A stretch of 64,000 nt of DNA from Burkholderiales bacterium (GTDB taxonomy: Bacteria; Pseudomonadota; Gammaproteobacteria; Burkholderiales; SG8-41): assembly GCA_020854035.1 (NCBI GenBank), contig JADZGE010000069.1, positions 363 to 64,362 of the forward strand. Reading direction: 5' to 3'. The notes under the pieces are model-generated. The model saw only the letters and a program-made list of their open reading frames with translations. It was not told the DNA's origin and ran no database searches. This document shows positions 7,743 to 62,643 of the stretch, piece by piece. Numbering within the stretch: position 1 is the first letter of the stretch; every line of letters begins with the position of its first letter. Position numbers and translations under genes: made by a program.

Positions 7743-7777
7743 GACGGGCGAGCGGAGATCGGGGACCGGGGACGGGA
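7743..7777. repeat. 5 x 7-nt tandem array (GANCGGG)
   Basis: gacgggc gagcgga gatcggg gaccggg gacggga, read directly in the ftsY-ftsE spacer. Confidence 0.8.
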
Positions 7778-7811
7778 CCCGGCTCTCCTGTCCCTCATCC
7801 CGCGTCGCCCT

Positions 7812-8783
7812 TCACTCGAGCAGGGCGGAGACGAACTCGCCCGCATCGAACGGGCGCAGGTCATCCAGCCCTTCGCCGACGCCGATGAAGCGCAGCGGTA
7901 TCGGCCGCTCGCGGGCGGAACCCGGGCGCAGATGCGCGATCGCCGCGATGACGCCGCCACGCGCGCTGCCGTCGAGCTTGGTGAGGATGAGCCCGGTCAC
8001 GCCAAGCGCATCGTCGAACGCCTTCACCTGCGCGAGCGCATTCTGGCCGGTGTTCGCGTCGAGAACGAGCAGCACCTCGTGGGGCGCGCCCGGCAGCGCC
8101 TTGGCGATGACGCGCTTCACCTTCCTGATTTCCTCCATGAGGTGGAGCTGGGTCGGCAGCCGCCCAGCGGTGTCGGCGAGCACGACGTCGATCCCTCGCG
8201 CCTGCGCCGCGTTGATGGCGTCGTAGATCACCGCGGCGGCGTCCCCCGATTGCTGCGAGATCACCGTCACACCGTTCCGCTCGCCCCACGCGATGAGCTG
8301 TTCGCGCGCCGCGGCGCGAAACGTGTCTCCCGCGGCGAGCAGCACCGAGTGCCCCTGGCCCCGAAAATAATTCGCGAGCTTGCCGATCGAGGTGGTCTTG
8401 CCGCTGCCGTTCACCCCGGCCAGCATGATGACGAAGGGACGGCGCGCGTCCACGGCGAGCGGGACGGCGAGCGGCTCGAGCGCCGCGAGCAGCGCGCCGT
8501 GCAGCGCGTCCTTCAGTTGCGCGGCGTCGGTATAACGCCCGCGGCGCGCGCGCTCGCGCACCGCCTCGATGAGCGCCGCGCTCGCGCCGGGGCCCACGTC
8601 GGCAGTGAGGAGGACGGCCTCCAGCTCCTCGTAGAGCGACGCGTCGAGAGCGCGGCCAGCCCCGAAAAGACCCGCGAGGCGGGAGCCAAGCTGCCGGCGT
8701 GTCTTGTCGAGGCCCTGCTTCAGGCGGTCGATCCAGCGGGAGCCGCCGCCGTCGCCCTTCGAACCTCTCAGGAAACTAAACAC
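7812..8783 (-). CDS. ftsY: signal recognition particle receptor FtsY
   Basis: GTG at 8783 (VFSFLRGSK...). Carries the SRP GTPase motifs GVNGSGKTTSIGK, DTAGR and TKLDG. The 276-aa upstream extension of the ORF overlaps the M16 gene and looks non-coding. Confidence 0.9.
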   Translation of the reverse strand: MFSFLRGSKGDGGGSRWIDRLKQGLDKTRRQLGSRLAGLFGAGRALDASLYEELEAVLLTADVGPGASAALIEAVRERARRGRYTDAAQLKDALHGALLAALEPLAVPLAVDARRPFVIMLAGVNGSGKTTSIGKLANYFRGQGHSVLLAAGDTFRAAAREQLIAWGERNGVTVISQQSGDAAAVIYDAINAAQARGIDVVLADTAGRLPTQLHLMEEIRKVKRVIAKALPGAPHEVLLVLDANTGQNALAQVKAFDDALGVTGLILTKLDGSARGGVIAAIAHLRPGSARERPIPLRFIGVGEGLDDLRPFDAGEFVSALLE

Positions 8784-8909
8784 GCGCCTGGCAGTCTCAT
8801 CGGGTTGTGGTCGCGGGCGGGCAGCGCGCCCACGCCGCCGCGTCGGGACAGCCGGTGCGTCGCTCGCTACAATCCCGGATTCTAATCCACTCGCCGTCCT
8901 TCGCTGACC

Positions 8910-23285: not shown

Positions 23286-23353
23286 CGAACCCACCGGGAC
23301 GGTTTTTTTCGGGGGGCGGGCCGGTAACGGCCGCCCCGGATCGGGAGACGGAC

Positions 23354-24070
23354 ATGAAGATAGAAGTGACGGCATTTCCCCGCGCGCACCGGGGATCGGG
23401 CGCCAGCCGGCGGCTGCGCGCGGGCGGGCGCGTCCCCGGGATCATTTACGGCGCCGGCGGGGCCGCGCGCAACGTCGAGGTGGACCATCGCACGCTGCTG
23501 CAGCAGTTGAAGCGCGAAGCGTTCCACGCCTCGATACTCGAATTGAAGCTCGACGGCGAAAGCATGCAGGTGCTCTTGCGCGACCACCAGATGCACCCGT
23601 GGCGCCAGCAGGTGCTGCACGTCGACTTCCAGCGCGTGGACAAGAACCGCAAGATCCGCATGCGCATCCCGCTGCACTTCACCAACGCGGAGATCTGCCC
23701 CGGGGTGAAGACCGGCGGCGGCGTGGTGCAGCACATCATGAACGAGATCGAGATCCAGTGCCTGCCGGACGACCTGCCGGAGTACATCGAGGTCGACCTC
23801 TCGGCGCTGGAACTCAACCAGACGCTGCACGTCACCGATCTCGCCATGCCGCGCGGGGTGGAGCCGCTGCCGCGCGTGAAGCACGAGGACCCGGCGGTGG
23901 TGTCGGTGCACGTGCCGAAGGAGATCGTGATCGAGGAAGAGGCGGCCGCGCCGGTCACCGAGATCATCGGCGAGGCTCCCGCCGAGGGCGAGGCTCCCGC
24001 CGAGGGCGCGGCCGAGGGCGAGAAGAAGGAAGCCGCGGCGGAGAAGAAGGAGCCCCCCAGGAAGGAGTGA
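23354..24070 (+). CDS. rplY: 50S ribosomal protein L25/general stress protein Ctc
   Basis: ATG at 23354. RRLRAGGRVPGIIYG, a two-domain Ctc form, and an acidic/Ala-rich tail containing EAPAEG repeats. Confidence 0.9.
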   Translation: MKIEVTAFPRAHRGSGASRRLRAGGRVPGIIYGAGGAARNVEVDHRTLLQQLKREAFHASILELKLDGESMQVLLRDHQMHPWRQQVLHVDFQRVDKNRKIRMRIPLHFTNAEICPGVKTGGGVVQHIMNEIEIQCLPDDLPEYIEVDLSALELNQTLHVTDLAMPRGVEPLPRVKHEDPAVVSVHVPKEIVIEEEAAAPVTEIIGEAPAEGEAPAEGAAEGEKKEAAAEKKEPPRKE

Positions 24071-33547: not shown

Positions 33548-34282
33548 ATGGCCGGTCACAGCAAGTGGGCCAACGTCCAGCATCGCAAGAACCGCCAGGA
33601 CGCGAAGCGCGGCAAGATCTTCACCCGCCTCATCAAGGAAATCACCGTCGCGGCGCGCCTCGGCGGCGGCGATCCCGATTCCAATCCGCGGCTGCGTCTC
33701 GCGATGGACAAGGCCTATTCGAACAACATGTCCAAGGACAACGTCGAGCGCGCCATCAAGCGCGGCACCGGCGGGCTCGAGGGCGCCAACTACGAGCAGG
33801 TGCGCTACGAGGGCTACGGCATCGGGGGGGCCGCGGTGATGGTGGATTGCCTGACGGACAATCGCACCCGCACCGTCGCCGACGTGCGCCACGCGTTCAC
33901 CAGGTCCGGCGGCAATCTCGGCACCGACGGCTCGGTCGCGTTTCTCTTCAGGCACTGCGGTCAGCTCGTCTTCGCGCCGGGCACCGACGAGGCGAAGCTC
34001 ATGGACGCCGCGATCGACGCGGGCGCGGAGGACGTCGTCACGAACGACGACGGCAGCATCGAGGTCGTCACGGCGCCGAACGACTTCGTCGCGGTGCGCG
34101 CCGGCCTCGAGCGGGCGGGGTTCAGGGCGGAGCTCGCCGAAGTGACTTTCAAGCCCACCACCGAGAACGTCATGAAGGGTGACGAGGCCCAGCGCATGCA
34201 GAAGCTCCTCGACGCGCTCGAAGGCATCGACGACGTGCAGGAGGTGTACACCACGGCCGTCATCGACGGCGGCGGTGGGTGA
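33548..34282 (+). CDS. YebC/PmpR family DNA-binding regulator
   Basis: [28 protein letters not shown] at the N-terminus. Confidence 0.95.
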
Positions 34283-34336
34283 GGTGGAACGCGGGAGGAG
34301 AGGGGAGCGAGGAGCGCCCGTCGGCCGCAAAGCGTC

Positions 34337-34912: not shown

Positions 34913-34957
34913 AAGTACAAGAGATGCCGCGGGCAAGCGCGGATCGATCAACCGGTT

Positions 34958-34987
34958 TTCATCGGCGTTCATCGGCGGCTCATCAGG
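34958..34987. repeat. decamer array TTCATCGGCG x2 plus a degenerate third unit
   Basis: ttcatcggcg ttcatcggcg gctcatcagg, ending 7 nt before the ruvA ATG. Confidence 0.85.
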
Positions 34988-35573: not shown

Positions 35574-35631
35574 CGAGCGATGAGCACAGGCGGGCAACGC
35601 GCGGAGCGCCGCCGCTTCTCCGGCCGCGTCG

Positions 35632-35659
35632 CCCATTACCATTGCCCATTGCGCATCCG
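35632..35659. repeat. heptamer array (CCATTGC-like) x4
   Basis: cccatta ccattgc ccattgc gcatccg, immediately upstream of the ruvB start. Confidence 0.75.
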
Positions 35660-35661
35660 GC

Positions 35662-36711
35662 ATGCTAGAAACTGACCGCCTCGTCGCCGGCGCCGCGGCC
35701 TCGCCGCAGGAAGAGGCGCTTGATCGCACGCTGCGCCCGCGCCTGCTCGAGGATTACGTGGGGCAGGAGAAGATCCGCGACCAGTTGTCCGTCTTCATCG
35801 AGGCGGCGCGCAGGCGGCGCGAGGCGCTCGACCATGTGCTCCTGTTCGGACCGCCGGGGCTCGGCAAGACCACCCTCGCGCACATCGTCGCGCACGAGAT
35901 GGGCGTGAACCTGCGGCACACCTCCGGCCCGGTGCTGGAGCGCCCCGGCGATCTCGCGGCGCTGCTCACCAATCTCGAGCCGAACGATGTCCTCTTCATC
36001 GACGAGATCCACCGGCTCTCGCCCGTGGTCGAGGAGATACTCTATCCCGCGCTGGAGGACTTCCAGATCGACATCATGATCGGCGAGGGCCCCGCGGCGC
36101 GCTCGGTCAAGCTCGACCTGCCGGCGTTCACGCTGGTGGGCGCGACCACGCGCGCGGGCATGCTCACCAATCCGTTGCGCGACCGCTTCGGCATCGTCGC
36201 GCGCCTGGAGTTCTACGACGCCGCGGAGCTTGCCCGCATCGTCGAGCGCTCGGCGCGGCTGCTCGCGATCGGAATCGTGCCCGAAGGGGCCGCCGAGATC
36301 GCCGCGCGCGCCCGCGGCACCCCGCGCATCGCCAACCGCCTCCTGCGGCGCGTGCGCGATTTCGCCGAAGTGCGGGCGCAGGGGACCGTCACGCGCGAGG
36401 TCGCCGACGCCGCGCTGAAACTCCTCGACGTGGACCCGCTGGGACTCGACGTGATGGACCGCAAGCTGCTGCTCGCGGTGATCGACAAGTTCGCCGGCGG
36501 CCCGGTGGGCGTCGACAACCTCGCCGCGGCGATCGGCGAGGAGCGCGATACCATCGAGGACGTACTCGAGCCCTACCTCATCCAGCAGGGCTACCTCCAG
36601 CGCACCCCGCGCGGGCGCGTGTGCACGGTCACGGCGTACCGGCATTTCGGCCTGGCGCAGCCCGCGCGCGCCGCCACGCCGGACCTGTGGTCGGAGCCGC
36701 CCGCCGGATGA
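35662..36711 (+). CDS. ruvB: Holliday junction branch migration DNA helicase RuvB
   Basis: Walker [12 protein letters not shown], Walker [10 protein letters not shown]. Confidence 0.95.
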
Positions 36712-36747
36712 TTGATGCGGAATGATGCATGTGGAATGATGCATCGA
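36706..36747. repeat. heptamer/14-mer array (GGAATGATGCAT)
   Basis: ggatgat tgatgcg gaatgat gcatgtg gaatgat gcatcga. Two 14-nt units, gcggaatgatgcat and gtggaatgatgcat, occupy 36717-36744. The array overlaps the ruvB TGA and the predicted ybgC ATG. Confidence 0.85.
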
Positions 36748-37924: not shown

Positions 37925-37973
37925 GGTGATGGGTGATGGGTGATGGGTGACGAGGGACGCGGGAGGAGGGGCG
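37925..37973. repeat. 7 x 7-nt array, GGTGATG decaying towards the tolR RBS
   Basis: ggtgatg ggtgatg ggtgatg ggtgacg agggacg cgggagg aggggcg. This fills the tolQ-tolR spacer. Confidence 0.9.
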
Positions 37974-37977
37974 AACC

Positions 37978-41255: not shown

Positions 41256-42107
41256 GTGACGGGCAGGACCGTGCGGCGGGTCGCGCTGTCGCTGCTCTGC
41301 GCCGGGGCCCTCGCGGGCCCGGCGCAGGCGCAGCTCTTCGGCGGCGATGAACTCGCGCGCAAGCAGATCGCCGAGCAGGGCCGGCGCATCGACGCGCTGA
41401 AGGAACAGAACGACGCGCTCGCGGCGCGGCTCGCGCGTATCGAGGACGCCATGAAGTCGCTCGCCTCCTCCAGCTCCGGTTTCGAACTCGCGCAGCAGCT
41501 GGAGCTGCTGCGCACGGAGTTGCGGCAGATGCGCGGGCAGATCGAGGTGCTGGGCAACGACGTGCAGCAGAGCGCCCGGCGGCAGCGCGACATGTACGTC
41601 GATCTCGACGGGAGGCTCAAGCGTCTCGAGCAGTCCGGGCCTGCGGCCGCGGGCACACCCGCTGCGGGCGCGGCGCCCGCCGCCGTGGCATCCGCGAAGC
41701 CACCGGCCCCCGGAGCGCCCGCCGCGGCGCCGCCCGCCGAGGCGGGCGCGTACGAGGCGGCGCAGGGCCAGCGGCGCATCGGCAACTACCAGGGCGCGAT
41801 CGCGGGATTCCAGCACTTCGTCGCGCAGTATCCGAAGAGCACGCTCGCGCCGCGGGCGCAGTACTGGATCGGCGACTCCTACTACAACCTGCGCGATTTC
41901 AAGAACGCGATCGCGAGCCAGAACCGGCTGATCGCGACCTATCCCGAGAGCTCCTCCGTGCCGGACGCGCTGCTCAATATCGCGAGCTGCCAGATCGAAC
42001 TCGGCGACACGGTGGGCGCGCGGCGCACCATGGACGGCCTCGTGACCCGCTACCCCGCGAGCGAGGCGGCGGAGAAAGCGAAGCGGCGGCTCGCCACCCT
42101 CAAGTGA
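41256..42107 (+). CDS. cpoB: cell division coordinator CpoB (YbgF)
   Basis: GTG start, a coiled-coil N-terminal region and a C-terminal TPR-like domain (YWIGDSYYNLRDFKNA). Confidence 0.9.
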   Translation: MTGRTVRRVALSLLCAGALAGPAQAQLFGGDELARKQIAEQGRRIDALKEQNDALAARLARIEDAMKSLASSSSGFELAQQLELLRTELRQMRGQIEVLGNDVQQSARRQRDMYVDLDGRLKRLEQSGPAAAGTPAAGAAPAAVASAKPPAPGAPAAAPPAEAGAYEAAQGQRRIGNYQGAIAGFQHFVAQYPKSTLAPRAQYWIGDSYYNLRDFKNAIASQNRLIATYPESSSVPDALLNIASCQIELGDTVGARRTMDGLVTRYPASEAAEKAKRRLATLK

Positions 42108-42138
42108 TGGGTGATGAGCGGTGGGCGACCGGTGACGC
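42104..42138. repeat. 5 x 7-nt array (GTGATGG-like) starting on the cpoB stop codon
   Basis: gtgatgg gtgatga gcggtgg gcgaccg gtgacgc. The cpoB TGA is nt 2-4 of the first unit. Confidence 0.85.
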
Positions 42139-42226
42139 CGGAATTCGAGCGCCCAGTCCGTCGCGAGTCGCCGAACATGAGGTCACGCACCAAGCGACTG
42201 CGGCTGTCCGCTTCCGTTAGCCCGCG

Positions 42227-42907
42227 ATGACCGATCTCGCAGTCGTGCTGCTCTCGGGTGGGCTCGATTCCGCGACGACGCTCGCCATCGCGCGCAGAGA
42301 GGGCTATGCCTGCCACTGCCTCACTGTCGACTACGGCCAGCGCCACCGCCCGGAACTCGGGGCGGCCGCCCGGGTGGCCGACGCGCTCGGCGCGGCCGAG
42401 CACCGGGTGATCTCGCTCGATCTTGCGGCATTCGGCGGCTCGGCGCTCACGGACCCGGCCATCGCGGTCCCGCCGGGCCCGACGGCGGGAATACCGGTCA
42501 CCTACGTCCCGGCGCGCAACACCGTGTTCCTCTCCCTCGCCCTTGCGTGGGCGGAGGTCCTTGACGCACGGTCGATCTGGTTCGGCGCGAACGCCGTGGA
42601 TTATTCCGGCTATCCCGACTGCCGCCCCGAGTACATGCGAGCGTTCGAAACGCTCGCCAACCTGGCGACGAAGGCGGCGGTCGAGGGCCGCCGGATCGCG
42701 TTGCGGACCCCCATCATCGATCTCAGCAAGGCGGAGATCATCCGGCGCGGCACCGCGCTCGGGGTGGACTACGGCATGACGCTTTCCTGCTACCAGCCGG
42801 ACGCGGAGGCCGGGGCGTGCGGCGTGTGCGATGCGTGCCGGTTGCGACGGGCGGGTTTCGCGGCGGCGGGTGTGCCGGATCCGACGCGCTACGCGGGAAA
42901 GGCGTGA
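42227..42907 (+). CDS. queC: 7-cyano-7-deazaguanine synthase
   Basis: PP-loop VLLSGGLDS and the C-terminal cysteine cluster [10 protein letters not shown]. Confidence 0.95.
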
Positions 42908-42942
42908 CCGGAGACTCGGGACCGGAGGCGGGAGACGGGCGG
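42908..42942. repeat. 5 x 7-nt array (CGGGAGA-like) starting right after the queC stop
   Basis: ccggaga ctcggga ccggagg cgggaga cgggcgg. Confidence 0.75.
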
Positions 42943-43052
42943 GCCCGGTTTGTCACCGCCTGGTGTTCGCCCGCCAGTGTGGCTTGCTCCTCTCCCTGCT
43001 GTCGCCTTTCGCCTCCCCCTGCGGATTGGTAGAATTCGCAGCCTTTCACTTG

Positions 43053-45710: not shown

Positions 45711-45752
45711 GCCGCCAGCGGTCGGCCGCCAGCGGCAAGCAGCCGGAGCCGG
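45711..45752. repeat. 14-nt tandem repeat x2-3
   Basis: gccgccagcggtcg gccgccagcggcaa gcagccggagccgg. Confidence 0.7.
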
Positions 45753-46762: not shown

Positions 46763-46896
46763 GCCGCCGATGAACGCCGATGTGACGAGTGCAAGCTCCG
46801 CGCGGCGGCGAGCGGCGGGGAACCCCCGACGTCACAACGCGGCACGTGAGATGACGCGCTGTTGACTCTATCGGCGTCTATCGGCGTCCATCGGCG
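46763..46896. repeat. inverted pair of CATCGGCG decamer arrays flanking an 84-nt spacer
   Basis: The left arm gccgccgatgaacgccgatg (46763-46782) is the reverse complement of TTCATCGGCG units. The right arm is tctatcggcg tctatcggcg tccatcggcg (46867-46896). The arms are complementary at 17 of 20 positions. Confidence 0.85.
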
Positions 46897-46903
46897 GTTC
46901 CGT

Positions 46904-48067: not shown

Positions 48068-48415
48068 GGGAATGCGCGGTCAGGGTGGACGCAGTGGGTG
48101 GGTCAGCCGCTCCCGTATTCTGCGCGGTCGCTCCGCCCTGCGCAAAGTCCATCATGTGTACAAAGGGGCGCGACCCCGGGAGTCCGGAGTGGACCGCGCA
48201 AACGGGCGGTAGCTATAATCCGTCGCCTCCCGGCGTGCGCTCACGCGAAGAAGGCGACTCGGTGCGGCAGGCGGTTCCGCCGTTGCGATATCGAACGTGC
48301 AGCAACAAGGGGGCGCTGTCGTCGCGGCCTGTCCCGGGTGGCATGCTGCCGGCCGGCAGCCGATTGCTGAACGCGTCGTTCGAGGGCCTGCTCCGCGAGG
48401 AACACCGCAACCGCC

Positions 48416-50719
48416 ATGCATGCCAAAGCATCGCCCCATTCGGGTGGCCGGGTGGAGGACTTCCGCCTCGTCACCGGGTCCGGCAAGTACGCCGCCGACT
48501 GGAGGCTCCCGGGGCAGCTCCACGCGCATTTCTTGCGATCGGACCGCGCGCACGCGGCGATCGTGTCGGTGGATACCACGCTCGCGTCGCGGCATCCCGG
48601 GGTGAGACGCGTCTACACCGGCAAGGATGCAATGCGCGCCGGCTACGACCGGTTTCTCGTGATGCTGAACGCTCCGGGGCGCGACGGCGAGCCTATCCGG
48701 AAGCCCCGCCGCCCCGCGCTCGCCACGGACCGGGTGCGCCACGTCGGCGATGCCGTGGCGATGGTCGTCGCCGACACCGCCGCCGCCGCGCAGGATGCCG
48801 CCGAGTTGATCGAGATTGCCTGCCGCGACCTGCCAGTGGTCGTGTCCCCCGAGCGCGCGCTGGCCGACGGCGCGCCGCGGTTGCACGAGGAAGCGCCCCG
48901 GAATCTCGCGTACGACTACGAGACCGGCGACGAGCAATCGGTCGAGGCGGCGTTCACGAGGGCCGCTCACGTCACGCGCCTCAGGCTGGAGGTGACCCGC
49001 GTCGCGCCGAGCCCGATGGAATTGCGCGGGTGCACGGTGGCTTACGACCCGAAGGACGATGCATATCACCTGTACGTGTGCATCCAGGGCATCAACATGA
49101 TGCGCAAGCAGGCCTCGTTTGCGACGGGCGTGCCCGAAGAGAGGATCCACGTCCACGCCGCGGACGTCGGCGGCGGTTTCGGACAGCGCAGCGCTTTCTA
49201 CCCGGAATACGCCATGCAGATGCTCGCGTCGAGGGAACTCGGCCGCCCGGTGCGCTGGATCTCCAGCCGCGCCGAAGGCTTCATGACCGATACCCACGGC
49301 CGCGGCAATATCGTCACGGCCGGACTTGCCCTCGACGGGAATGGGAAGTTCCTGGCGGTGCGGCTCGACTGGGTCGGGGACATGGGCGCGTACCTGTCCG
49401 CAACCGGCGCGGCGAGCCATACCCGCAACCCCACGACCTGCCTCACCGGCGTCTACCGGATCCCGGCGCTCTACAACCGCATCCGGCTCGTGTTCACGAA
49501 CACCACGCCGATTGCCGCGTACCGCGGGGCGGGGCGTCCGGACATCGCCTACGTGCTGGAGCGGGTGGTCACGCAGGCCGCCGCCGAGCTCGGGATGGAC
49601 CCGGCCGAGCTGCGCCGGCGCAACTTCATACCGCGCGGCGCGTTTCCGTACAAGACCCCGAACGGCGCGACCTACGAGGAAGCCGATTTCGCCGGATGCC
49701 TCGACAAGGCTCTCAGCGCGGCCGACTGGAGCGGATTCGAGCGGCGGCGCGCGGAGGCGAACCGGCGGGCGCGGCTACGCGGGATAGGCCTGTCCACCGT
49801 GATCGAGCCCACCGGCGCGGGGATGTTTCCCAAGGACCAGGTTCTGATCGAGTGCACCGCGGAGAGCGTCACCGTGTTCTCGCTCGCGCACTCCCAGGGG
49901 CAGAGTCACGAGACCACGTTCGCGATGGTGGTGGCCGATGCGCTGGGCGTGCCGATGGACAAGGTGCGGATCCGGCAGAGCGTGCAGGAGAAGGGGCTGA
50001 TCGGCAACCACACGGGCGGCTCGCGCTCCATGGTGGGGCAGGGCAGTGTTTGCCGGCTTGCCGCGCTGAAGCTCGTCGAAATGACAAAAGCCCGGGCGGC
50101 ACAGAAACTCGGCGTCGAGCCCTCCCAGGTCGAGTACGCGCGCGGCGAGTTCCGGTCGAAGGAATCGAAGAAGACCGTCACCCTGTTCGGCCTCGCGCAA
50201 GGGGAGCCGCTCTCCGCGCTGGCGGAAGCGACGGTAGGCTCGACCTTCCCCAACGGCTGCCACATCGCCGAAGTGGAAGTGGATCCGGACACCGGCGTCA
50301 CCCGGGTCGTGGGCTATCATGCGGTGGATGACTCGGGCAATATCGTGAACCACACCGTGGTCGAGGGACAGGTGCACGGGGCCGTTACGCAGGGCGCGGG
50401 CCAGGTCTTCGGCGAGAAGGTGACCTACGACGAGCATACCGGTCAGCTCCTCACCGGGAGCTTCATGGACTACTTCATGCCGCGCGCCGGGATGCTGCGG
50501 GCGATCGGCGTCGCGGACCATCCCGTGCCGAGCGCGACCAATGCGCTCGGCGCGAAGGGCGTGGGCGAATCCGGCTGCACCGCGTCGCTGCCCGCGCTCA
50601 CGAACGCCGTGCTGGACGCGTTGCGGCCGCTGGGGATAGAGCACCTCGACATGCCGCTCACGCCGAACAAGGTGTGGCACGCGATCTGCTCGGCGAAGGC
50701 TCAGGTCAAGGCAGGTTGA
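48416..50719 (+). CDS. xanthine dehydrogenase family molybdopterin-binding large subunit (form II CoxL-like), paralog 1
   Basis: 767 aa with N-terminal RLVTGSGKYAADW. The active-site loop is AAYRGAGRP (about 49517-49537), not the CO-dehydrogenase AYxCSFR. Confidence 0.9.
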   Translation: MHAKASPHSGGRVEDFRLVTGSGKYAADWRLPGQLHAHFLRSDRAHAAIVSVDTTLASRHPGVRRVYTGKDAMRAGYDRFLVMLNAPGRDGEPIRKPRRPALATDRVRHVGDAVAMVVADTAAAAQDAAELIEIACRDLPVVVSPERALADGAPRLHEEAPRNLAYDYETGDEQSVEAAFTRAAHVTRLRLEVTRVAPSPMELRGCTVAYDPKDDAYHLYVCIQGINMMRKQASFATGVPEERIHVHAADVGGGFGQRSAFYPEYAMQMLASRELGRPVRWISSRAEGFMTDTHGRGNIVTAGLALDGNGKFLAVRLDWVGDMGAYLSATGAASHTRNPTTCLTGVYRIPALYNRIRLVFTNTTPIAAYRGAGRPDIAYVLERVVTQAAAELGMDPAELRRRNFIPRGAFPYKTPNGATYEEADFAGCLDKALSAADWSGFERRRAEANRRARLRGIGLSTVIEPTGAGMFPKDQVLIECTAESVTVFSLAHSQGQSHETTFAMVVADALGVPMDKVRIRQSVQEKGLIGNHTGGSRSMVGQGSVCRLAALKLVEMTKARAAQKLGVEPSQVEYARGEFRSKESKKTVTLFGLAQGEPLSALAEATVGSTFPNGCHIAEVEVDPDTGVTRVVGYHAVDDSGNIVNHTVVEGQVHGAVTQGAGQVFGEKVTYDEHTGQLLTGSFMDYFMPRAGMLRAIGVADHPVPSATNALGAKGVGESGCTASLPALTNAVLDALRPLGIEHLDMPLTPNKVWHAICSAKAQVKAG

Positions 50720-50890
50720 CGCCGCCGATGGATGCCGATGGACGCCGATAGAATGAGCACGGCCACGGTGGCGCATCGGCGCCGCGCCGTTGTCGCTGCC
50801 GGGAACGTCCCGGTCCTGAGGCGTGGAACGCATTGTGGTCGAGGCATGACGAGTCGCCAGAATCGGCGTTCATCGGCGTTCATCGGCGGC
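50720..50890. repeat. inverted pair of CATCGGCG decamer arrays flanking a spacer of about 106 nt
   Basis: The left arm cgccgatgga tgccgatgga cgccgataga (50723-50752) is the reverse complement of TCTATCGGCG-type units. The right arm is aatcggcg ttcatcggcg ttcatcggcg gc (50861-50890). Arm types are swapped relative to the 46.8 kb copy. Confidence 0.85.
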
Positions 50891-50911
50891 TAGATTTCGG
50901 GGTTTGACGAC

Positions 50912-53233
50912 ATGGCGGCGAAGGCGAACAGGGAGGCACACGGCCATCACGACCCGGTCGGCCGCGTGGAGGACGCGCGGCTCGTCACGGGCAACGGCAA
51001 GTACGCCGCCGACTGGCGGCTGCCGGGGCAGCTCCACGCCCGTTTCGTGCGCGCCGACCGGGCGCACGCCGACATCGTTTCGATCGACGCTACGGCGGCG
51101 CTGCGCCACCCGGGCGTGAAGGCGGTGCTGACCGGCGAGGACGCGGTGCAGGCGGGTTACTTCACTGCGCCGAACGCGCTCAATTTCCCGGGCAGGAATG
51201 GCATGACGGCGATCGCGCCCAGGCGCCCGGCGCTCGCCCACGGGCGCGTGCGCTTCGTCGGCGAAGCGGTCGCGCTCGTCGTCGCCGCGACCCCCGCCGC
51301 GGCGCAGGATGCCGCCGAACTCGTCGCCGTCGAGTATCGCGACCGGGTCCCGGTCACGGCGCCCGAGGCGGCGCTCGCACCGGGGGCGCCGCGGATTCAC
51401 GACGAGGTGCCGGGCAACTGCCCTTTCGAATCGGAGGCCGGCAGCGCGGAGGCGGTCGCGGCAGCGATCGCGGCAGCCGCGCACGTGACGCGGCTGAAGG
51501 TCGTTTCGAACCGCGTCGCCCCCAGTCCCATGGAGCCTCGCGCCTGTATGGTCGAATGGGATGCGTCCCGCGATCACTACACCCTCTACGTCTGCTCGCA
51601 GGGCATTACCACCCAGCGCCAGCAGATGTCGGCCTGGACCGGGGTCAAGGGATCGCAGTTCACGATACACGCGCGCGACGTGGGCGGGGGCTTCGGCCAG
51701 CGCACGCTCGCCTACCCCGAGTATTGCGCGCTCATGATCGCGGCGAAAAAGCTCGGGCGGCCGGTGCAGTGGGTCGCCACCCGGGGCGAGGGTTTCATGG
51801 CCGATTCGCACGGGCGGGCGAACGTGATCGAGGGTGAGCTCGCGCTCGACGCGGGTGGGCGCTTTCTGGGGCTGCGGCTGTCGTGGGTGAACGACATGGG
51901 GTCGTACCTCTCGCCCGGCGCGATGGGACACATCCGCAACACGACGACCTGCATGACCGGGGTCTACCGCATCCCCGCGCTCTACGCTTCGTACCGGGTG
52001 GCCCTTACCAACACCACCCCGGTGGCGGCCTACCGGGGCGCGGGCCGTCCCGATATCGCCTACGTGGTGGAGCGCCTCGTGAGCGAGGCTGCGGCCGAAC
52101 TCGGAATCGACCCGGCGGAGCTGCGGCGGCGCAACTTCATCCCGGTGGAGGCCTTCCCGTACGCCACCCCGACTGGCTCGACCTACGAGTACGCGGACAT
52201 GCCGGGGTTGATCGAGAAGGCGCTGAAGCTCGCCGACTGGACGGGTTTCGCGGAACGCCGCGCGAAGACGGAGAAGAACGGGAAGCTCCGCGGCCTCGGC
52301 ATCGCGACGGTGATCGAGAACACCGGGGCGGGCAACGCGCCGAAGGACGACGCCGAGATCGAGGTCGGGGCGGACGGCATCGTCACCGTGCACACGCTCG
52401 CCAAGGCGCAGGGGCACGGCCACGAGACGACTTTCGCGCAGATCGTCGCCGGGGCGCTGGAGCTGCCGCTTGCGCGCGTGCGTGTCATGCAATGCGCGCC
52501 GGAGAAGCAGCAGTCGATGGTCGGCAACCACACCGGGGGATCGAGGAGCACGGTCGGCGCGGGCAGCGTCTGCCATCTCGCCGCGCTGAAGGCGATCGAC
52601 GAGGGCAAGGCCCGGGCGGCGCTCGTCCTTGGCGTGGAGCCCTCGCAGGTCGCCTACGCGCGGGGCGTCTTCGGCTCGACGGAGTCGGGGAAGAAGGTCG
52701 CGCTCGCGGACCTCGCGCGGGACGGGACGCCCTTCGCGGTCGCTGCGGAGGGCAGGTTCGGCTCCACTTTTCCCAACGGCTGCCACATCGCCGAGGTCGA
52801 GGTCGATCCCTCGACCGGCGCGACCGGGATCACCGCCTACAGCGCCGTGGACGACTGCGGCCGGGTGATCAACCATGCGATCGTGGAAGGTCAGCTCCAC
52901 GGCGGCGTCATGCAGGGCATCGGCCAGGTGCTCGGCGAGTCGATCGTATACGACGACGCGACGGGCCAGCTCCTCACCGGGAGCTTCATGGATTACTGCA
53001 TGCCGCGCGCCGGGTGGCTGCGCGGCATCAGCGGGCAGGAGCATGCGACGCCGAGCAAGGTGAGCCCGCTCGGCGTGAAGGGCATGGGCGAGTCGGGCTG
53101 CACCGGGTCGATCCCGGCGGTGGCGAACGCCGTCATGGATGCACTCCGGAGCGCGGGCGTGGGACACGTCGACATGCCGTTGACGCCGTCGCGAGTTTGG
53201 CTTGCACTGCAGTCGCGGCAGCGGAAGGGGTGA
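50912..53233 (+). CDS. xanthine dehydrogenase family molybdopterin-binding large subunit (form II CoxL-like), paralog 2
   Basis: 773 aa. Shares long near-identical blocks with paralog 1 (GKYAADWRLPGQLHA, GSTFPNGCHIAEVEVDP, TGQLLTGSFMDY). Loop VAAYRGAGRP. Confidence 0.9.
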   Translation: MAAKANREAHGHHDPVGRVEDARLVTGNGKYAADWRLPGQLHARFVRADRAHADIVSIDATAALRHPGVKAVLTGEDAVQAGYFTAPNALNFPGRNGMTAIAPRRPALAHGRVRFVGEAVALVVAATPAAAQDAAELVAVEYRDRVPVTAPEAALAPGAPRIHDEVPGNCPFESEAGSAEAVAAAIAAAAHVTRLKVVSNRVAPSPMEPRACMVEWDASRDHYTLYVCSQGITTQRQQMSAWTGVKGSQFTIHARDVGGGFGQRTLAYPEYCALMIAAKKLGRPVQWVATRGEGFMADSHGRANVIEGELALDAGGRFLGLRLSWVNDMGSYLSPGAMGHIRNTTTCMTGVYRIPALYASYRVALTNTTPVAAYRGAGRPDIAYVVERLVSEAAAELGIDPAELRRRNFIPVEAFPYATPTGSTYEYADMPGLIEKALKLADWTGFAERRAKTEKNGKLRGLGIATVIENTGAGNAPKDDAEIEVGADGIVTVHTLAKAQGHGHETTFAQIVAGALELPLARVRVMQCAPEKQQSMVGNHTGGSRSTVGAGSVCHLAALKAIDEGKARAALVLGVEPSQVAYARGVFGSTESGKKVALADLARDGTPFAVAAEGRFGSTFPNGCHIAEVEVDPSTGATGITAYSAVDDCGRVINHAIVEGQLHGGVMQGIGQVLGESIVYDDATGQLLTGSFMDYCMPRAGWLRGISGQEHATPSKVSPLGVKGMGESGCTGSIPAVANAVMDALRSAGVGHVDMPLTPSRVWLALQSRQRKG

Positions 53234-53294
53234 AGGGAAGGGGTGACGAGGAATGGTGACGGGAAGGGGTGACGGGAAATGGTGACGGGGGACG
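53230..53294. repeat. 5 x 13-nt tandem repeat (GTGACGGGAAnnG) starting on the stop codon
   Basis: gtgaagggaaggg gtgacgaggaatg gtgacgggaaggg gtgacgggaaatg gtgacgggggacg. The paralog 2 TGA is nt 2-4 of unit 1. Confidence 0.9.
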
Positions 53295-54181: not shown

Positions 54182-54254
54182 GCGCGGAGGCCACGGAGGA
54201 CTGCGAAACGGGGAAGGGCTCTTCCTTCTCTGCGGACTCCGCGGCTCCGTGGCC
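54182..54254. repeat. inverted word repeats (CGCGGAG / CCACGGAG and their complements)
   Basis: ggccacggag (54189-54198) is exactly complementary to ctccgtggcc (54245-54254). cgcggag and ctccgcg words lie nearby, in the coxM-coxS spacer. Confidence 0.7.
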
Positions 54255-54747: not shown

Positions 54748-54881
54748 CTCGCCGCCCGGGCCGGCTGCGCATCGCCGGCTGTTCCGCGGCGGACACAGAG
54801 ACCACGGAGAGCGCCTCGCGAACCGCCGCCGCGCGCTCCGCGAGCGCCGTGACCGAAGTTTCCCAACAGGAGCGATTTCCC

Positions 54882-59035: not shown

Positions 59036-59210
59036 ATGAGCTATCGGCTTTGAGCTCCGTGCTGCGCGCTTCGGGCCATGAACTTTGAGCTATTGGCTGT
59101 GAGCCGTGGGCTGTGAGCTGTGAGGTCGCCCCTCGTTCGCAACCCGTAGCCCATAGCCCAAAGCCCATGGCTCAAGGCTCACAGCCCATAGCTCATAGCT
59201 CATAGCGAGG
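59036..59210. repeat. 25 in-register heptamers: 13 x nTGAGCT-like, a 21-nt centre, then 8-9 x AGCYCAY (inverted)
   Basis: atgagct atcggct ttgagct ccgtgct gcgcgct tcgggcc atgaact ttgagct attggct gtgagcc gtgggct gtgagct gtgaggt | cgcccct cgttcgc aacccgt | agcccat agcccaa agcccat ggctcaa ggctcac agcccat agctcat agctcat agcgagg. Positions 59078-59105 are complementary to 59176-59203 at 25 of 28 positions. Confidence 0.95.
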
Positions 59211-59218: not shown

Positions 59219-60190
59219 ATGGGAATGCTGGTAGAGGGCGTGTGGCAGGATGTCCCGCGCGACACGCGTGCGACGGGCGGCGCGTTCGTGCGGCCCGAGT
59301 CCGTGTTCCGCGACCGCGTGACGGCAGACGGGTCCTCGGGCTTCAGGGCCGAGCCGGGGCGCTACCACCTGTACGTCTCCTACGCGTGCCCGTGGGCGCA
59401 CCGCACGATCGTCTTCCGTGCCCTCAAGGGACTGGAGCGGGTGATCACGATGTCCGCGGCCGACCCGGTAAGCGAGCCGAACGGCTGGACCTACGAGAGC
59501 CGGCCCGACACCGCGAACGGCGTGCGCCATCTCCACGAGGCGTACGTCAGGGCGCGGCGCGATTACACGGGCCGGGTGACGGTGCCGGCGCTCTGGGACC
59601 GCGAGAGGCAGACCATCGTCAACAACGAGTCTTCCGAGATCATCCGGATGCTCAATACCGCGTTCGACGCGTTCGCGACGCGCGAGCTGCCGGACATGTA
59701 CCCGGACGCACTGCGCGGGGAAATCGACCGCTGGAACGACTTGATCTACCCCTCCGTCAACAACGGCGTCTACCGCGCGGGCTTCGCCACCGCGCAGGAC
59801 AAGTACGAGGAGGCCGCGCGCGGCGTGTTCGATACCTTCGACCGGCTGGAGCGGCATCTCGCGGGCAGCCGCTATCTCTGCGGCGACAGCGTGACGGAAG
59901 CGGACTGGCGCCTGTTCACGACCCTCGTGCGCTTCGACAGCGTCTACCACTACCACTTCAAGTGCAACCTCGCGCGGCTCACCGACTATCCGGGCCTCTG
60001 GGCCTATACCCGCGAGCTCTACCAGTATCCCGGCGTCGCGGCGACCGTGGATCTCAAGGAAATCAAGGAGCACTACTACCGCAGCCAGCCGCGCGTCAAT
60101 CCGAGCGGTGTGGTCGCAATCGGCCCGCGCCTCGACGAGCGGGATTTCATGGCGCCGCACGGCCGGGACGTGGTAAAGGTGACGGGATGA
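59219..60190 (+). CDS. Xi-class glutathione transferase (glutathionyl-hydroquinone reductase, YqjG/PcpF-like)
   Basis: Signature YVSYACPWAHRT (CPWA catalytic Cys), 323 aa. Confidence 0.9.
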   Translation: MGMLVEGVWQDVPRDTRATGGAFVRPESVFRDRVTADGSSGFRAEPGRYHLYVSYACPWAHRTIVFRALKGLERVITMSAADPVSEPNGWTYESRPDTANGVRHLHEAYVRARRDYTGRVTVPALWDRERQTIVNNESSEIIRMLNTAFDAFATRELPDMYPDALRGEIDRWNDLIYPSVNNGVYRAGFATAQDKYEEAARGVFDTFDRLERHLAGSRYLCGDSVTEADWRLFTTLVRFDSVYHYHFKCNLARLTDYPGLWAYTRELYQYPGVAATVDLKEIKEHYYRSQPRVNPSGVVAIGPRLDERDFMAPHGRDVVKVTG

Positions 60191-60210
60191 TGGTGACGCG
60201 CGGTTCGCAT

Positions 60211-60294
60211 CGTCACTCGTATCTCGTCACTCGTATCTCGTCACCCGTATCCCGTCACCCGTATCCCGTCACCCGTATCTTGCCACCTCCTTTG
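60211..60294. repeat. 6 x 14-nt tandem repeat (CGTCACYCGTATCY; complement contains GGTGACG)
   Basis: cgtcactcgtatct x2, cgtcacccgtatcc x2, cgtcacccgtatct, then the degenerate tgccacctcctttg. Lies between the GST stop and the coxL-like paralog 3 start. Confidence 0.95.
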
Positions 60295-60311
60295 CGCGAA
60301 AAGGCAGAGCC

Positions 60312-62606
60312 GTGACCAGCGAGTTCAAGGGCCGGCGCGAGGATTACCGCCTCGTGACGGGACAGGGCAGGTACGCATCGGACTGGAACCTGCCGGGGCA
60401 GGTGCACGGGGCCTTCCTGCGCGCGGACCGGGCGCACGCGGACATCGTCTCGATCGACACGGCGCGGGCGAAGAAGGCGCCGGGGGTCGTCGCGGTGCTG
60501 ACGGGCGCGGACCTCGCTTCCGAGAAGCTGGGCGTCCCGCCGCCGCACGTCAAGTTCCCGGGACGCGGCGGCATGGCGCTGAAGGTTCCGCACCGCGACC
60601 TGCTGGCACGAGACCGGGTGCGTTTCGTCGGACAGGAAGTGGCGCTGGTTCTCGCCGAAGCCCCTGCTGCCGCGCGCGACGCCGCCGATCTCATCGACGT
60701 GGCTTACCGTGACCTTCCCGTGGTGACGGTCGGCGAGGCGGCGCTGGCGGCGGGCGCGCCGCAGTTGCACGCGGAAATCCCGGGTAACCTCTGCTTCGAC
60801 TACCAGTACGGCGACGAGGCGAGAACGGCGGAGGCTTTCGCGCGCGCGGCCCACGTGGCGCGCGTCACCCTGACCGCGCAGCGGATGGTGGGCAACCCGA
60901 TGGAGCCGCGTGCCTGCCTCGCGGCCTGGGACGCCGCGGCGGAACGCTACGACCTGTGGTCGTGCTCGCAGGGGATGTCGCATATCCTGTCGGGACTGTC
61001 GGGCATTTTCGGGCTGCCCGAAGCGAGATTCCGGGCGCACGCACGGGACGTGGGCGGCGGCTTCGGTATACGTACCGACGCCTACGTCGAGTATGCGGCG
61101 GCGCTCGTCGCCGCGCGCCGGCTCGGCCGGCCGGTGAAGTGGGTGTCCTCGCGCTCCGAGACCTTCCTCTCCGACTACCAGGGCCGCGACGTGCTGCTGG
61201 AGGGCGCGCTCGCACTCGACGGCGCGGGCCGGTTTATCGGGCTCCGCGTGAACTGGCTCTGCAACATGGGCGCCTACCTGTCGCAGCCCGGCCCGATCAT
61301 CAACACTCTCCCCGCGACGACGCACATGGTGAACGCCTACCGCATCCCGGTGCTTCACGGCAGGCACCGCCTGGCGTTCACCAACACGGCGCCGACCACG
61401 GCGTATCGCGGCGCCTTCCGGCCGAACGTGAGCTACCTCCTCGAAAGCCTCGCGGAGCAGGCTGCGCGCGAGACGGGTATCGACCGAGTGGCGCTCCGGC
61501 GCCGCAACGTCATCCCGCGAGAAGCGTTCCCACATCAGACGCCGACCGTCGTCTACGACAGCGGCGACCCTCCGGGATTGCTCGATCTCGCGGTCGAGCA
61601 ATCCTCATGGAAGACATTCGATGGCAGGCGCGATGCCTCGAAGCGCGAGGGCAGGTTGCGGGGGATCGGCTGCGCGGTGTTCATCGAGCCCTCGGGCGGC
61701 GGGACCGCGCCCAGGGAGGAGGTCGCGATCAAGTTCGGCGATTCCGGAAACGCGTCGATCTACACTCTCGCGGGCCCGTCGGGGCAGGGGCACGAGACCG
61801 TGTTTCCCGATATCGTCGCGGAGGTGCTGGGCCTGAGCGCGGAGAAGCTGGTCCTTCACGCGAGCGACCCGGCAGGACCGGCGCTCGTCGGCGGTGGCAC
61901 GATCTCCTCGCGCTCGTCGATCTCGCACGGCAGCGCGATGGTGTTCGCGGCGCGCGAGGTGATCCGCAAGGCGCTCGATCTCGCGGCGAAGGACCTCGAA
62001 GTCGCGCCCGCCGACCTGGAGTTCGTGGCCGGCGAGTTCCGCGTCAAGGGCACGGACTTGAGGGTGGCGATGGAAACCCTCGCCCGCAGGCATGCAAGCG
62101 CGCTCGATTCGATGGGCGAGATTCCGACGCCGCGCTCCTACGCGGGCGGCGCGCACGTGGCGGAGGTCGAGATCGACCCCGAGACCGGCGCGATCGAGCT
62201 CCTGCGCTACGTCGCGGCCGACGACTGCGGGCGGGTACTGAACCACACGCTCCTCGACGGGCAGCTCCACGGCGGCATCGTGCAGGGGGCGGGACAGGCG
62301 CTGGGCGAGCACTGCCGCTACGACCCCGCCACGGGGCAGCTCCTTACCGGGAGCTTCATGGACTACTACATGCCGCGCGCGGGGCTGCTGCGCGACGTGC
62401 GGCTCTTCGACCACTGCGTGCCCGCGCCGGGCAATCCCCTCGGCGTGAAAGGGGCGGGCGAAGCCGGCACGACCGGGGCCGTGCCCGCCATCGCCAACGC
62501 GGTGCTGGACGCGCTCGCGCCGCTGAAGATACGGCAGCTCGAGTTTCCCTACACCCCGGCGCGGGTGTGGGAGGCGATACGGGCTGCCAGGCGGAATCAG
62601 GATTAG
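60312..62606 (+). CDS. xanthine dehydrogenase family molybdopterin-binding large subunit, paralog 3 (divergent)
   Basis: GTG start, 764 aa. The active-site loop variant is TAYRGAFRP (about 61401-61421). No adjacent M or S subunit genes. Confidence 0.9.
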   Translation: MTSEFKGRREDYRLVTGQGRYASDWNLPGQVHGAFLRADRAHADIVSIDTARAKKAPGVVAVLTGADLASEKLGVPPPHVKFPGRGGMALKVPHRDLLARDRVRFVGQEVALVLAEAPAAARDAADLIDVAYRDLPVVTVGEAALAAGAPQLHAEIPGNLCFDYQYGDEARTAEAFARAAHVARVTLTAQRMVGNPMEPRACLAAWDAAAERYDLWSCSQGMSHILSGLSGIFGLPEARFRAHARDVGGGFGIRTDAYVEYAAALVAARRLGRPVKWVSSRSETFLSDYQGRDVLLEGALALDGAGRFIGLRVNWLCNMGAYLSQPGPIINTLPATTHMVNAYRIPVLHGRHRLAFTNTAPTTAYRGAFRPNVSYLLESLAEQAARETGIDRVALRRRNVIPREAFPHQTPTVVYDSGDPPGLLDLAVEQSSWKTFDGRRDASKREGRLRGIGCAVFIEPSGGGTAPREEVAIKFGDSGNASIYTLAGPSGQGHETVFPDIVAEVLGLSAEKLVLHASDPAGPALVGGGTISSRSSISHGSAMVFAAREVIRKALDLAAKDLEVAPADLEFVAGEFRVKGTDLRVAMETLARRHASALDSMGEIPTPRSYAGGAHVAEVEIDPETGAIELLRYVAADDCGRVLNHTLLDGQLHGGIVQGAGQALGEHCRYDPATGQLLTGSFMDYYMPRAGLLRDVRLFDHCVPAPGNPLGVKGAGEAGTTGAVPAIANAVLDALAPLKIRQLEFPYTPARVWEAIRAARRNQD

Positions 62607-62643
62607 CCGCAGAGGCGCAGAGGGCGCGGAGAAATGCGGAAAA
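62607..62643. repeat. degenerate 8-10-nt word repeats (GCAGAG/GCGGAG) right after the stop codon
   Basis: ccgcagag gcgcagag ggcgcggaga aatgcggaaa. Confidence 0.6.

Follow-up and report, generated by a model that had tools for sequence, protein, structure and literature searches.

A 64,000-nt stretch of contig JADZGE010000069.1 (assembly GCA_020854035.1), here called the window, belongs to the metagenome-assembled genome of an uncultured soil betaproteobacterium of the order Burkholderiales, and short tandem arrays occupy many of the spacers between its genes. Two kinds of arrays were distinguished. Class A consists of two dispersed families, (TTCATCGGCG)x3, here called the decamer module, and nonamers with the core CRCRGAG. 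Class B consists of locus-specific arrays built on 7-nt units. In other genomes, the same unit families as in class A bracket genes for GxxExxY, a small PD-(D/E)XK nuclease, and the decamer module shows one insertion polymorphism. Taking the evidence together, we lean towards a reading in which class A arrays are the termini of a cassette that has no gene in the window and class B arrays are simple-sequence repeats of the slippage type.

The arrays were located with Tandem Repeats Finder (TRF; score threshold 30) and a separate periodicity scan for weaker ones, and both approaches confirmed the arrays at the coordinates of an original prediction made from the letters of the window alone. The comparison of intergenic and coding DNA that it had proposed was carried out. 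Arrays with periods of 7-16 nt covered 507 nt of 6,912 intergenic nt, compared to 21±21 nt (maximum 85) in dinucleotide shuffles; for coding DNA the corresponding values were 210 nt and 183±63 nt expected, i.e., no excess. Arrays within genes had periods of 6, 9, 12, 15, 18 nt and similar, all multiples of three. Individual words also recurred far beyond expectation in the window: the pair ATCGGCG-N3-ATCGGCG had eight matches (0.33 expected), GGTGAYG-N7-GGTGAYG, with a spacing of 14 nt, six (0.19 expected), and tandem pairs of CRCRGAG six (~0.1 expected). Most of the predicted units were real, including the GGTGAYG core recurring at 37925, 53230 and 60211. The array at 42104 was weak, and the item at 45711, with two copies below the TRF threshold, was at chance level. 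The gene names given to the neighbours (ruvB, tolQ, cpoB, queC, coxL-like and GST, the last for glutathione S-transferase) agreed with Pfam.

The prediction that arrays often start on or close to the upstream stop codon also held. With array boundaries set by hand, the array overlapped the stop codon or lay at most 7 nt from it in 11 of the 14 array-bearing spacers that have a stop edge, compared to 5.1±1.2 after random placement within the same spacers (P ~1e-4). The native stop codon was located inside the first unit of at least six window arrays, namely those following ruvB, cpoB, queC, coxL-like gene 2, the GST gene and yebC.

Genes, simple terminators and CRISPR do not account for these arrays, in agreement with the original prediction. 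A search of the window against Rfam at gathering thresholds returned two tRNAs only, and one at E-value thresholds with seven array-rich loci returned tRNAs and spurious microRNA hairpin matches only. Intrinsic terminators and sigma-70 promoters were searched for between 46600 and 51000, and no such site was found at the decamer arrays. Resemblances to DnaA boxes, Neisseria uptake sequences, ops sites, SRP RNA and 23S rRNA were noted by eye and are given no weight here. The window units are contiguous and 7-14 nt long, unlike CRISPR repeats, which measure 24-48 nt and alternate with unique spacers of similar length. The source being a metagenome-assembled genome, assembly artefacts come to mind, but we find this explanation hardly credible: each array or arm is no longer than ~90 nt and probably fits within one short read, and the same kinds of arrays, from the same families, are found in many independent assemblies, finished plasmids and isolate genomes.

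The decamers form a dispersed and conserved module. A 20-mer, CATCGGCGTTCATCGGCGGC, is identical at three window spacers, and the 5′ arms following two stop codons are near-identical; the 20-mer was absent from 80 ruvB loci of relatives. Comparison contigs and plasmids are numbered with an L below, the metagenome ones having been picked for carrying arrays. A metagenome scan with TYYATCGGCGTYYATCGGCG, for which all results given here refer to the matches listed, found the decamer module in at least 120 contigs with G+C contents from 0.32 to 0.70. The consensus comprises a T-rich stretch, ATCsGCG TTcATCGGCG TTCATCGGCG, the flank G-C-T/C-A-A and a second T-rich stretch. Exactly three units were present in 119 of 136 arrays. 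An inverted partner was located within 300 nt upstream in 68 of 124 cases and downstream in 10 of 122 (controls 0 of 91); the pairs typically face outward, the distances between their arms are concentrated around 30 nt and between 85 and 145 nt, and 45% of the modules are solo. Hosts included Burkholderiales-like contigs, a contig with proteins closest to Candidatus Sumerlaeota and a Methylobacterium plasmid, so that the module is present in at least two phyla. No Rfam family matched it. Among 2.9 million viral contigs there were only five matches, which makes a phage origin unlikely. A test based on open reading frames (ORFs) gave no support for placement at a constant distance upstream of start codons (22% compared to 25% at random positions). 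At the variable positions the two arms showed no covariation beyond genome background. Selection for a hairpin was therefore rejected; the lack of covariation points to sequence recognition instead, and each arm is conserved independently of the other.

One alternative holds that all arrays, decamers included, arose by neutral slippage in place, and that the recurring words merely reflect the TGA stop, Shine-Dalgarno-like G-rich runs and a GC-rich composition. It would explain why arrays start on stop codons, why units differ between relatives in the same spacer and why TGA is enriched, and polymerase slippage favouring 7-nt units has been proposed before (Mrazek et al., 2007, as summarized in PMC4679880 and PMC4692102). 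We nevertheless consider it unlikely as an account of all arrays. The 30-nt decamer modules are near-identical and have conserved flanks in at least two phyla, and among the matches listed the orientation of the partner is strongly asymmetric and the copy number fixed at three, which argues against membership in the slippage-type repeats. In addition, a whole module of ~270 nt is present in one genome and absent from its close relatives. The original prediction had pooled all arrays as a single phenomenon; this view is not tenable, the decamers (CATCGGCG) and the CGCGGAG/CACGGAG/GCAGAG words being dispersed cross-phylum modules and not local slippage products.

The case just mentioned is an insert of ~270 nt with a decamer pair between hydA and hydB of L156. 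In L210 and L211, whose HydA is 94% identical at the protein level and whose flanking DNA is closely similar, hydA and hydB overlap by ATGA or are separated by 8 nt. A symmetric part of the insert (~216 nt) is flanked by the 7-nt direct repeat ATGAACC, which covers the hydB start codon. In the window, the spacer between coxL-like genes 1 and 2 measures 192 nt and carries a decamer pair, compared to 27 nt without a pair in L202. Direct repeats of at least 7 nt flanked 5 of 53 pairs (9.4%, compared to 2.2% in re-paired controls), with lengths from 7 to 15 nt. L156 differs from L210 and L211 at a second place, where ~200 extra nt without arrays are located between tctC and hydA (4810-5010).

The ORFs near arrays in 120 of the listed loci were clustered into families. 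They included TctC receptors, a group known for its great expansion in Burkholderiales, and a PD-(D/E)XK protein of only ~125 residues, which was identified as GxxExxY (Pfam PF13366 PDDEXK_3; NCBIfam TIGR04256); no transposase was among the largest families. GxxExxY is listed as a family of unknown function that has undergone multiple horizontal transfers between divisions (PMC3424549). In L093, the GxxExxY ORF reads across the left array and ends in a stop codon that overlaps the right array's first unit, and in L095 the gene is bracketed by arrays 441 nt apart. In L113 an array lies directly 5′ of the gene, and in L097, L106 and L168 arrays are followed by decayed GxxExxY remnants; in L168 an ATG within the array opens the GxxExxY reading frame (MNADERGYLDTLTERVLE). 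The gaps between arms measured 0-150 nt in 55 pairs and 293-441 nt in four.

As an independent test, nine plasmid-borne GxxExxY genes were picked by protein similarity alone, and short repeats flanked eight of them. The GxxExxY gene of Bacteroides finegoldii has CCACAGAGGACGCAGAGGACACGGAGGA upstream and the complement downstream, that of Bernardetia has CACAGAGA-type units upstream and again the complement downstream, and that of Sphingomonas is accompanied by CACGCGAAG and its complement. In Gemmatirosa, one copy is followed by a CGCGGAT decamer pair and another by CCGCAGAGGACGCAGAGGGCCGCAGAGGA. The Treponema gene is flanked by ACACGGATTCG and CGAATCCGTGT, inverted units of 10-11 nt, and copies from Fusobacteria and Prevotella by direct repeats containing decamer-like units. 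Arrays of the CRCRGAG type stand beside GxxExxY in Bacteroides, Gemmatirosa and Bernardetia, and in Gemmatirosa and Bacteroides the words nearly coincide with those of the window arrays at 62607 and 54183. The window arrays match the arrays flanking GxxExxY in L093, L095, L216 and L218, all of which consist of inverted 8-10-nt units of the type C-R-C-N-G-A. The bracketed genes were found on metagenome contigs and on plasmids of Bacteroidota, Gemmatimonadota and Spirochaetota. In literature searches by sequence, peptide and family name, neither the decamer element nor flanking repeats of GxxExxY were found to have been described, and the link of GxxExxY to the two word families goes beyond the literature searched.

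On three plasmids (L215, L218, L219), GxxExxY is a single small gene between co-oriented housekeeping genes. The neighbours are fabD/fabG in Sphingomonas, radA and the gene for an FAD-dependent protein in Bacteroides, and ade and the gene for a mannose-1-phosphate guanylyltransferase in Bernardetia. These positions are of the same kind as those that gene-less arrays occupy in the window.

According to the reading we favour, the decamer module, with its G-C-T/C-A-A flank, and the CRCRGAG nonamers would be the gene-less terminal repeats of a small selfish cassette whose full form consists of an array, the GxxExxY nuclease gene and an inverted array. Class A modules would arrive by insertion, usually as outward-facing inverted pairs 30-150 nt apart, and would owe their retention to a sequence-reading factor, probably the GxxExxY nuclease itself, and not to base pairing between the arms. 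The gene-less modules of the window would descend from GxxExxY cassettes or be moved by them. Both kinds of arrays lie between a stop codon and the ribosome-binding site of the next gene and would be co-transcribed within operons. A more far-reaching proposal, which we offer tentatively and regard as rather doubtful, makes GxxExxY the mobilising enzyme (homing-like or recombination-promoting) of an unrecognised class of small mobile elements, the ends of which are inverted arrays of three 8-10-nt units. Gene-less derivatives, namely the decamer and CRCRGAG modules of the window, would then have colonised stop-proximal spacers, including those of essential operons, in several phyla, and the same machinery might have produced the heptamer arrays found in Burkholderiales, perhaps also those in Xanthomonas.

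The dispersed intergenic location and the inverted doublets at a spacing known from REPINs, mostly without target duplications, would also fit repetitive extragenic palindromic (REP) or REPIN elements moved by a REP-associated tyrosine transposase (RAYT, TnpA-REP) encoded elsewhere in the genome. We judge this very improbable. REP elements are dispersed and extragenic, form inverted doublets with long hairpins and are co-transcribed in operons, as are the bacterial interspersed mosaic elements (BIMEs), but REP itself is a palindrome of ~20-40 nt, whereas a single arm in the window is a direct array of 8-10-nt units without self-complementarity, which is not even an imperfect palindrome and cannot fold alone. 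No transposase, Y1 or other, and no RAYT gene was detected by Pfam among the ~67 called genes of the window, nor was a transposase among the largest array-near ORF families of the 120 listed loci; the small gene that recurs with the window families encodes the PD-(D/E)XK nuclease. [quoted passage not shown] These share with the class A modules the non-coding inserts of 90-270 nt between genes with terminal inverted repeats (in the window the pairs 46763/46864 and 50721/50862), the excess of gene-less over gene-carrying forms with the same ends among the matches listed, and presence or absence at an orthologous site (one case). They differ in that class A has no fixed target duplication and ends in arrays, and that its gene form encodes a nuclease of ~125 residues, not a DDE transposase. 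The proposed GxxExxY cassette shares the decamer and CRCRGAG families with the window, whose copies, however, are gene-less.

The class B arrays (units of 7, 13 and 14 nt; GGTGAYG, GCTGTGA and others) are of a known kind, the long simple-sequence repeats as found in Burkholderia. They are rich in TGA and occur as direct arrays or inverted pairs. Relatives carry similar arrays in the ruvB set and at other loci, with other units (GGTGAGG, GAGTGAG, GGCTGAA, GGGATGA, CCTGTCA). TGA was present in 33 of 51 heptamer array units compared to 12±2.9 expected from letter permutation, and GTGA in 21 of the 51 compared to 5.8 expected. The 5′ end of the TGA-bearing strand was the gene-adjacent end in 24 of 35 cases, as judged from crude gene calls. 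The syntenic relatives L202 and L203 have arrays in the same spacers with different units: between the GST and coxL genes, L203 carries GTGTCGA/TCGACAC and the window 14-mers of the GGTGACG type, and neither relative has the 13-mer array that follows coxL-like gene 2. GGTGAYG pairs were likewise absent from the 80 ruvB loci of relatives. These arrays may have arisen by slippage seeded on the gene end. On this account, arrays such as GGTGAYG, GCTGTGA and GGGAGAC would start from the final nucleotides, TGA stop included, of the gene before them, would be expanded by replication slippage and would survive only where neither the protein nor the next start site is disturbed.

The original prediction had known of no equivalent description for this kind of genome, but two earlier studies provide one, and the window shows a known kind of bacterial repeat in a lineage without an earlier survey. 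According to the summaries in PMC4679880 and PMC4692102, Mrazek et al. (2007) placed Burkholderia with those genomes that contain most simple-sequence repeats of 5-11 nt, heptamers being the commonest class. As summarized there, these repeats agree with the window arrays in being head-to-tail, longer than expected by chance, most often heptameric and non-coding, and in occurring in large high-GC genomes including betaproteobacterial hosts; the difference is that this survey saw slippage-prone repeats, whereas two of the window families are inserted modules with a fixed copy number and conserved flanks. The GGGAATC repeats of Xanthomonas prefer spacers between co-oriented genes, lie at most 50 nt from the stop codon or overlap it on the coding strand, and keep their polarity towards the 5′ neighbouring gene whatever the gene orientation (Rehm et al., 2015; PMC4692102). 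They form 70-75 inverted pairs per genome, differ in length between species with the type (single or paired) preserved, and have no identified function and no regulatory effect (PMC4692102).

These Xanthomonas repeats and the GGGGA(C/T)T heptamers of Nostoc (PMC4692102) resemble the window arrays in several respects: they are intergenic, mostly in spacers flanked by co-oriented genes, the G-rich strand has its 5′ end next to the neighbouring gene, they lie close to or overlap the stop codon, inverted pairs are frequent, and length and sequence vary between related species while the type is kept. Unlike them, the window arrays consist of GGTGAYG, GCTGTGA, GGGAGAC and 13-/14-mer units, not of GGGNATC or GGGGAYT, show no preference for four units, include only three that could form quadruplexes and are found in a betaproteobacterial host. 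The TAACTGA repeats described by MacGregor (2015; PMC4679880) in marine Beggiatoaceae, cyanobacteria and Bacteroidetes are also intergenic heptamers containing a stop and located near gene boundaries, with a patchy cross-phylum distribution that suggests horizontal spread. However, they consist of a single unit sequence, are mostly situated just upstream of start codons and are inverted only once in 170 (PMC4679880). The original prediction had named two further analogues, REP/BIME elements, discussed above, and heptanucleotide arrays of cyanobacteria, and we judge both analogies fair.

The latter, the short tandemly repeated repetitive (STRR) sequences of heterocystous cyanobacteria, are tandem heptamers in non-coding DNA as in the window, with other unit sequences and in another host lineage. 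To our knowledge, they have no tie to stop codons or inverted pairs.

Several arrays have their reverse complement at the opposite edge of the spacer (46763/46864, 50721/50862, 54183/54228, 59036/59138, 60164/60210 and the two halves of 7743-7808). For the RNA of such spacers, folding predicts a hairpin that is long but imperfect; the long helices closing the spacers had z-scores against shuffles of -4.2 (46763/46864), -5.2 (50721/50862) and -6.9 (59036/59138). The direct-only arrays at 37925, 53223, 42104 and 42908 were unstructured as RNA. The quadruplex motif (G3N1-7)x4 was present in only three of ~19 arrays (37931-37956, 59143-59166 on the minus strand and 60251-60274 on the minus strand), and quadruplex formation was therefore rejected as a general explanation. 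The predicted hairpins might affect mRNA.

Stable helices of this kind in three spacers, the three quadruplex-capable arrays and the 10-nt period with its three-unit rule, which fits binding on one face of the helix, might suggest that the arrays are selected cis-regulatory elements of operons, i.e., intercistronic RNA hairpins (acting as RNase III sites, as attenuators or as a block to 3′ exonucleases), G-quadruplexes or operator arrays for a protein that binds DNA or RNA, whose spread would reflect function and not selfishness. The conservation of the repeat type between Xanthomonas species (PMC4692102) would fit as well. We consider this improbable, because the arms do not covary and 45% of the listed modules are solo, the neighbouring genes have no common function, quadruplexes are possible in so few arrays, no terminator- or promoter-like consensus was found in 46600-51000, and Rehm et al. 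(2015) saw no regulatory effect (PMC4692102).

Several observations weigh against cassette termini and slippage repeats as the explanation of the two classes. A GxxExxY gene or remnant was not found in the window, and the interiors of gene-less pairs showed no similarity to the GxxExxY gene and thus no support for descent by deletion. Only a single filled site was compared with empty ones (L156 with L210/L211), and among 53 pairs no fixed-length target duplication was found, as the flanking repeats vary between 7 and 15 nt and accompany only five pairs. The metagenome loci had been chosen for the presence of arrays and their gene calls were crude, and the decamer and CRCRGAG families were grouped by eye on the basis of a shared C-R-C-N-G-A core. 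Nothing ties the 7/13/14-nt arrays to any gene, and the split into two classes may be artificial because class B shares the inverted-pair geometry and the polarity with class A. Finally, a role of the arrays in providing stops in every frame after a gene was not supported in the window, where all three reading frames were closed within 80 nt of the stop in only 3 of 10 arrays.

Abundant intergenic repeats with 5-11-nt units have been on record for bacteria since 2007. If the reading of class A as cassette termini is correct, at least part of this repeat signal would consist of discrete inserted modules with ends matching those of a very widespread nuclease gene and not of slippage noise. The link yields a testable hypothesis for the role of GxxExxY, for the spread of repeats into spacers of essential operons (ruv, tol-pal, fts) and for their position close to stop codons. 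For practical purposes, the arrays create spurious small ORFs in annotations, e.g., MNADERR, can mislead predictors of terminators and small RNAs, and are candidate markers for strain typing.

The window has a G+C content of ~70%. Its genes were called from third-position G+C content, and nearly all were checked by Pfam, which supported a cluster with cox-assembly genes, rpoH and ftsYEX and another with ruvC-ruvA-ruvB-ybgC-tolQRAB-pal-cpoB-queC. A third cluster combines three coxL-like genes with coxM-like and coxS-like ones and also holds an amidohydrolase gene, a GST gene and others. The closest relatives of RuvB, with 85% protein identity, were found in uncultured Burkholderiales, Betaproteobacteria and Casimicrobiaceae genomes; in a comparison of one window protein, the nearest relatives beyond the source genome showed at most 83% identity. 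No exact protein match was found for TolQ, TolR or RuvB. The arrays are listed in Table 1.

Table 1. Tandem arrays in the spacers of the window (TRF, Tandem Repeats Finder, given as period x copy number; PLP, pyridoxal phosphate)
Position	Strand	Units	Location	Basis and remarks
7743..7808	.	G-rich heptamer-like words GACGGGC GAGCGGA GATCGGG GACCGGG, then C-rich complement	fills spacer between the minus-strand genes ftsY and ftsE (Pfam)	period 7 x3.9, 80% identity at 7747-7773 (periodicity scan); sense-strand RNA fold z=-2.3
34277..34316	+	purine-rich imperfect heptamers GGGTGAGGTGG...GGAGAGGGGAGCGAGGAGCG	starts on yebC stop codon (YebC by Pfam)	period 7 x3.1; scan span 34295-34316
34951..34979	+	solo decamer module, TTCATCGGCG x2 and a degenerate unit	17 nt upstream of ruvA start	TRF 10 x2.0 at 34958-34977
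35631..35656	+	CCCATT(A/G) heptamers, weak	just upstream of ruvB start	TRF 7 x3.9, 75%
36703..36744	+	14-nt units GGAATGATGCATNN x3	ruvB stop in first unit	TRF 14 x2.1 at 36715-36744
37925..37950	+	GGTGATG x3.7, perfect	extended by degenerate GACGAGG-type units (+) to 37974, reaching the tolR ribosome-binding site	TRF 7 x3.7, 100%; 37925..37974 with G3N4 quadruplex motif, unstructured as RNA
42101..42140	+	GTGATGG GTGATGA and degenerate units, weak	starts on cpoB stop codon	below TRF threshold
42901..42945	+	heptamers GGCGTGA CCGGAGA CTCGGGA CCGGAGG CGGGAGA	starts on queC stop codon	period 7 x2.6 (periodicity scan, 42922-42939)
45711..45735	+	GCCGCCAGCGG, two copies 14 nt apart		item of the original prediction; chance level; no TRF report at score 30
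46763..46782	-	decamer module, left arm of inverted pair, minus-strand TTCATCGGCG	18 nt upstream of start of 3-hydroxyisobutyrate-dehydrogenase-like gene	
46864..46896	+	decamer module x3.3, right arm of pair	7 nt from stop of minus-strand Cys/Met PLP enzyme gene	TRF 10 x3.0 at 46867-46896
50721..50749	-	decamer module x2.9, plus-strand CGCCGATGGA type	1 nt past stop of coxL-like gene 1	TRF 10 x2.7 at 50723-50749
50862..50888	+	decamer module x2.7	23 nt upstream of start of coxL-like gene 2	TRF 10 x2.7, 100%
53223..53289	+	13-nt units GGAAGGGGTGACG x5.2	stop of coxL-like gene 2 in first unit	TRF 13 x5.2
54183..54251	.	inverted pair of CRCRGAG nonamer units CGCGGAGGCCACGGAG ... CTCCGCGGCTCCGTG	coxM-to-coxS spacer	hairpin predicted
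54794..54809	+	solo CRCRGAG pair CACAGAGACCACGGAG	46 nt past coxS stop	
59036..59126	+	~13 degenerate heptamers, NTGRGCT, GCTGTGA core	left hairpin arm, divergent glyoxalase/GST spacer	TRF 7 x4.1 at 59096-59124
59138..59206	-	~10 complementary heptamers, plus-strand CCCATAG/CTCACAG	right hairpin arm	TRF 7 x9.1 at 59143-59206
60164..60198	+	two forward 14-nt units GGTAAAGGTGACGG GATGATGGTGACGC	straddle GST stop codon	
60210..60280	-	five 14-nt units, plus-strand TCGTCACCCGTATC	complement of forward units 60164-60198, pairs with them in local hairpin	TRF 14 x5.1, 94%
62607..62645	+	units CCGCAGAGG CGCAGAGGG CGCGGAGAAA	directly after stop of coxL-like gene 3	TRF 8 x2.0 at 62608-62623

Array-bearing spacers cluster in the second half of the window (34000-63000). 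The first 34 kb have one such spacer (ftsY/ftsE) and instead carry classical terminators with a hairpin and a T-run at 1820-1852, 5143-5170 and 23296-23345. Repeats within genes were also reported by TRF (38643-38751, 43657-43720, 44415-44455, 23969-24012). They are in frame, with periods that are multiples of three, and sit in TolA (12, 21, 24 nt), in a Tyr/Gly-rich ORF (12, 15 nt), in a (CCG)n run and in ribosomal protein L25 (18 nt).

Two comparison contigs showed further arrangements of class A words. On the Sumerlaeota-like contig L186, a segment of ~140 nt is present twice, at 2700-2840 and 3345-3485, 650 nt apart. Each copy contains CACGGAA/CGCGGAG words followed by a CACAGATAAA-type arm and a TTTATCGGCG-type arm, the arms using different unit variants, and a promoter-like TTGACA-N17-TAAATC is located between the second copy and the next gene. 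The viral contig L206 from IMG/VR carries six CRCRGAG tandem pairs on one strand within 380 nt (1150-1530).

Between 28500 and 31900, the window contains an island with a G+C content of 0.63-0.64, compared to 0.70, which resembles a mobile or defence island. It comprises an ORF without Pfam match (28758-29735, minus strand), a gene for an IrrE/HTH protein (29748-30887, minus strand), two small HNH ORFs (30945-31246 and 31255-31626) and a fragment with a helicase C-terminal domain (31434-31790, minus strand), and it adjoins a gene for a HerA-like ATPase (31895-33403, minus strand). A perfect 17-bp inverted repeat, GAATTCGTGACGCGCCA ... TGGCGCGTCACGAATTC, is located at 43055-43097, directly 5′ of the tRNA gene at 43099-43170.

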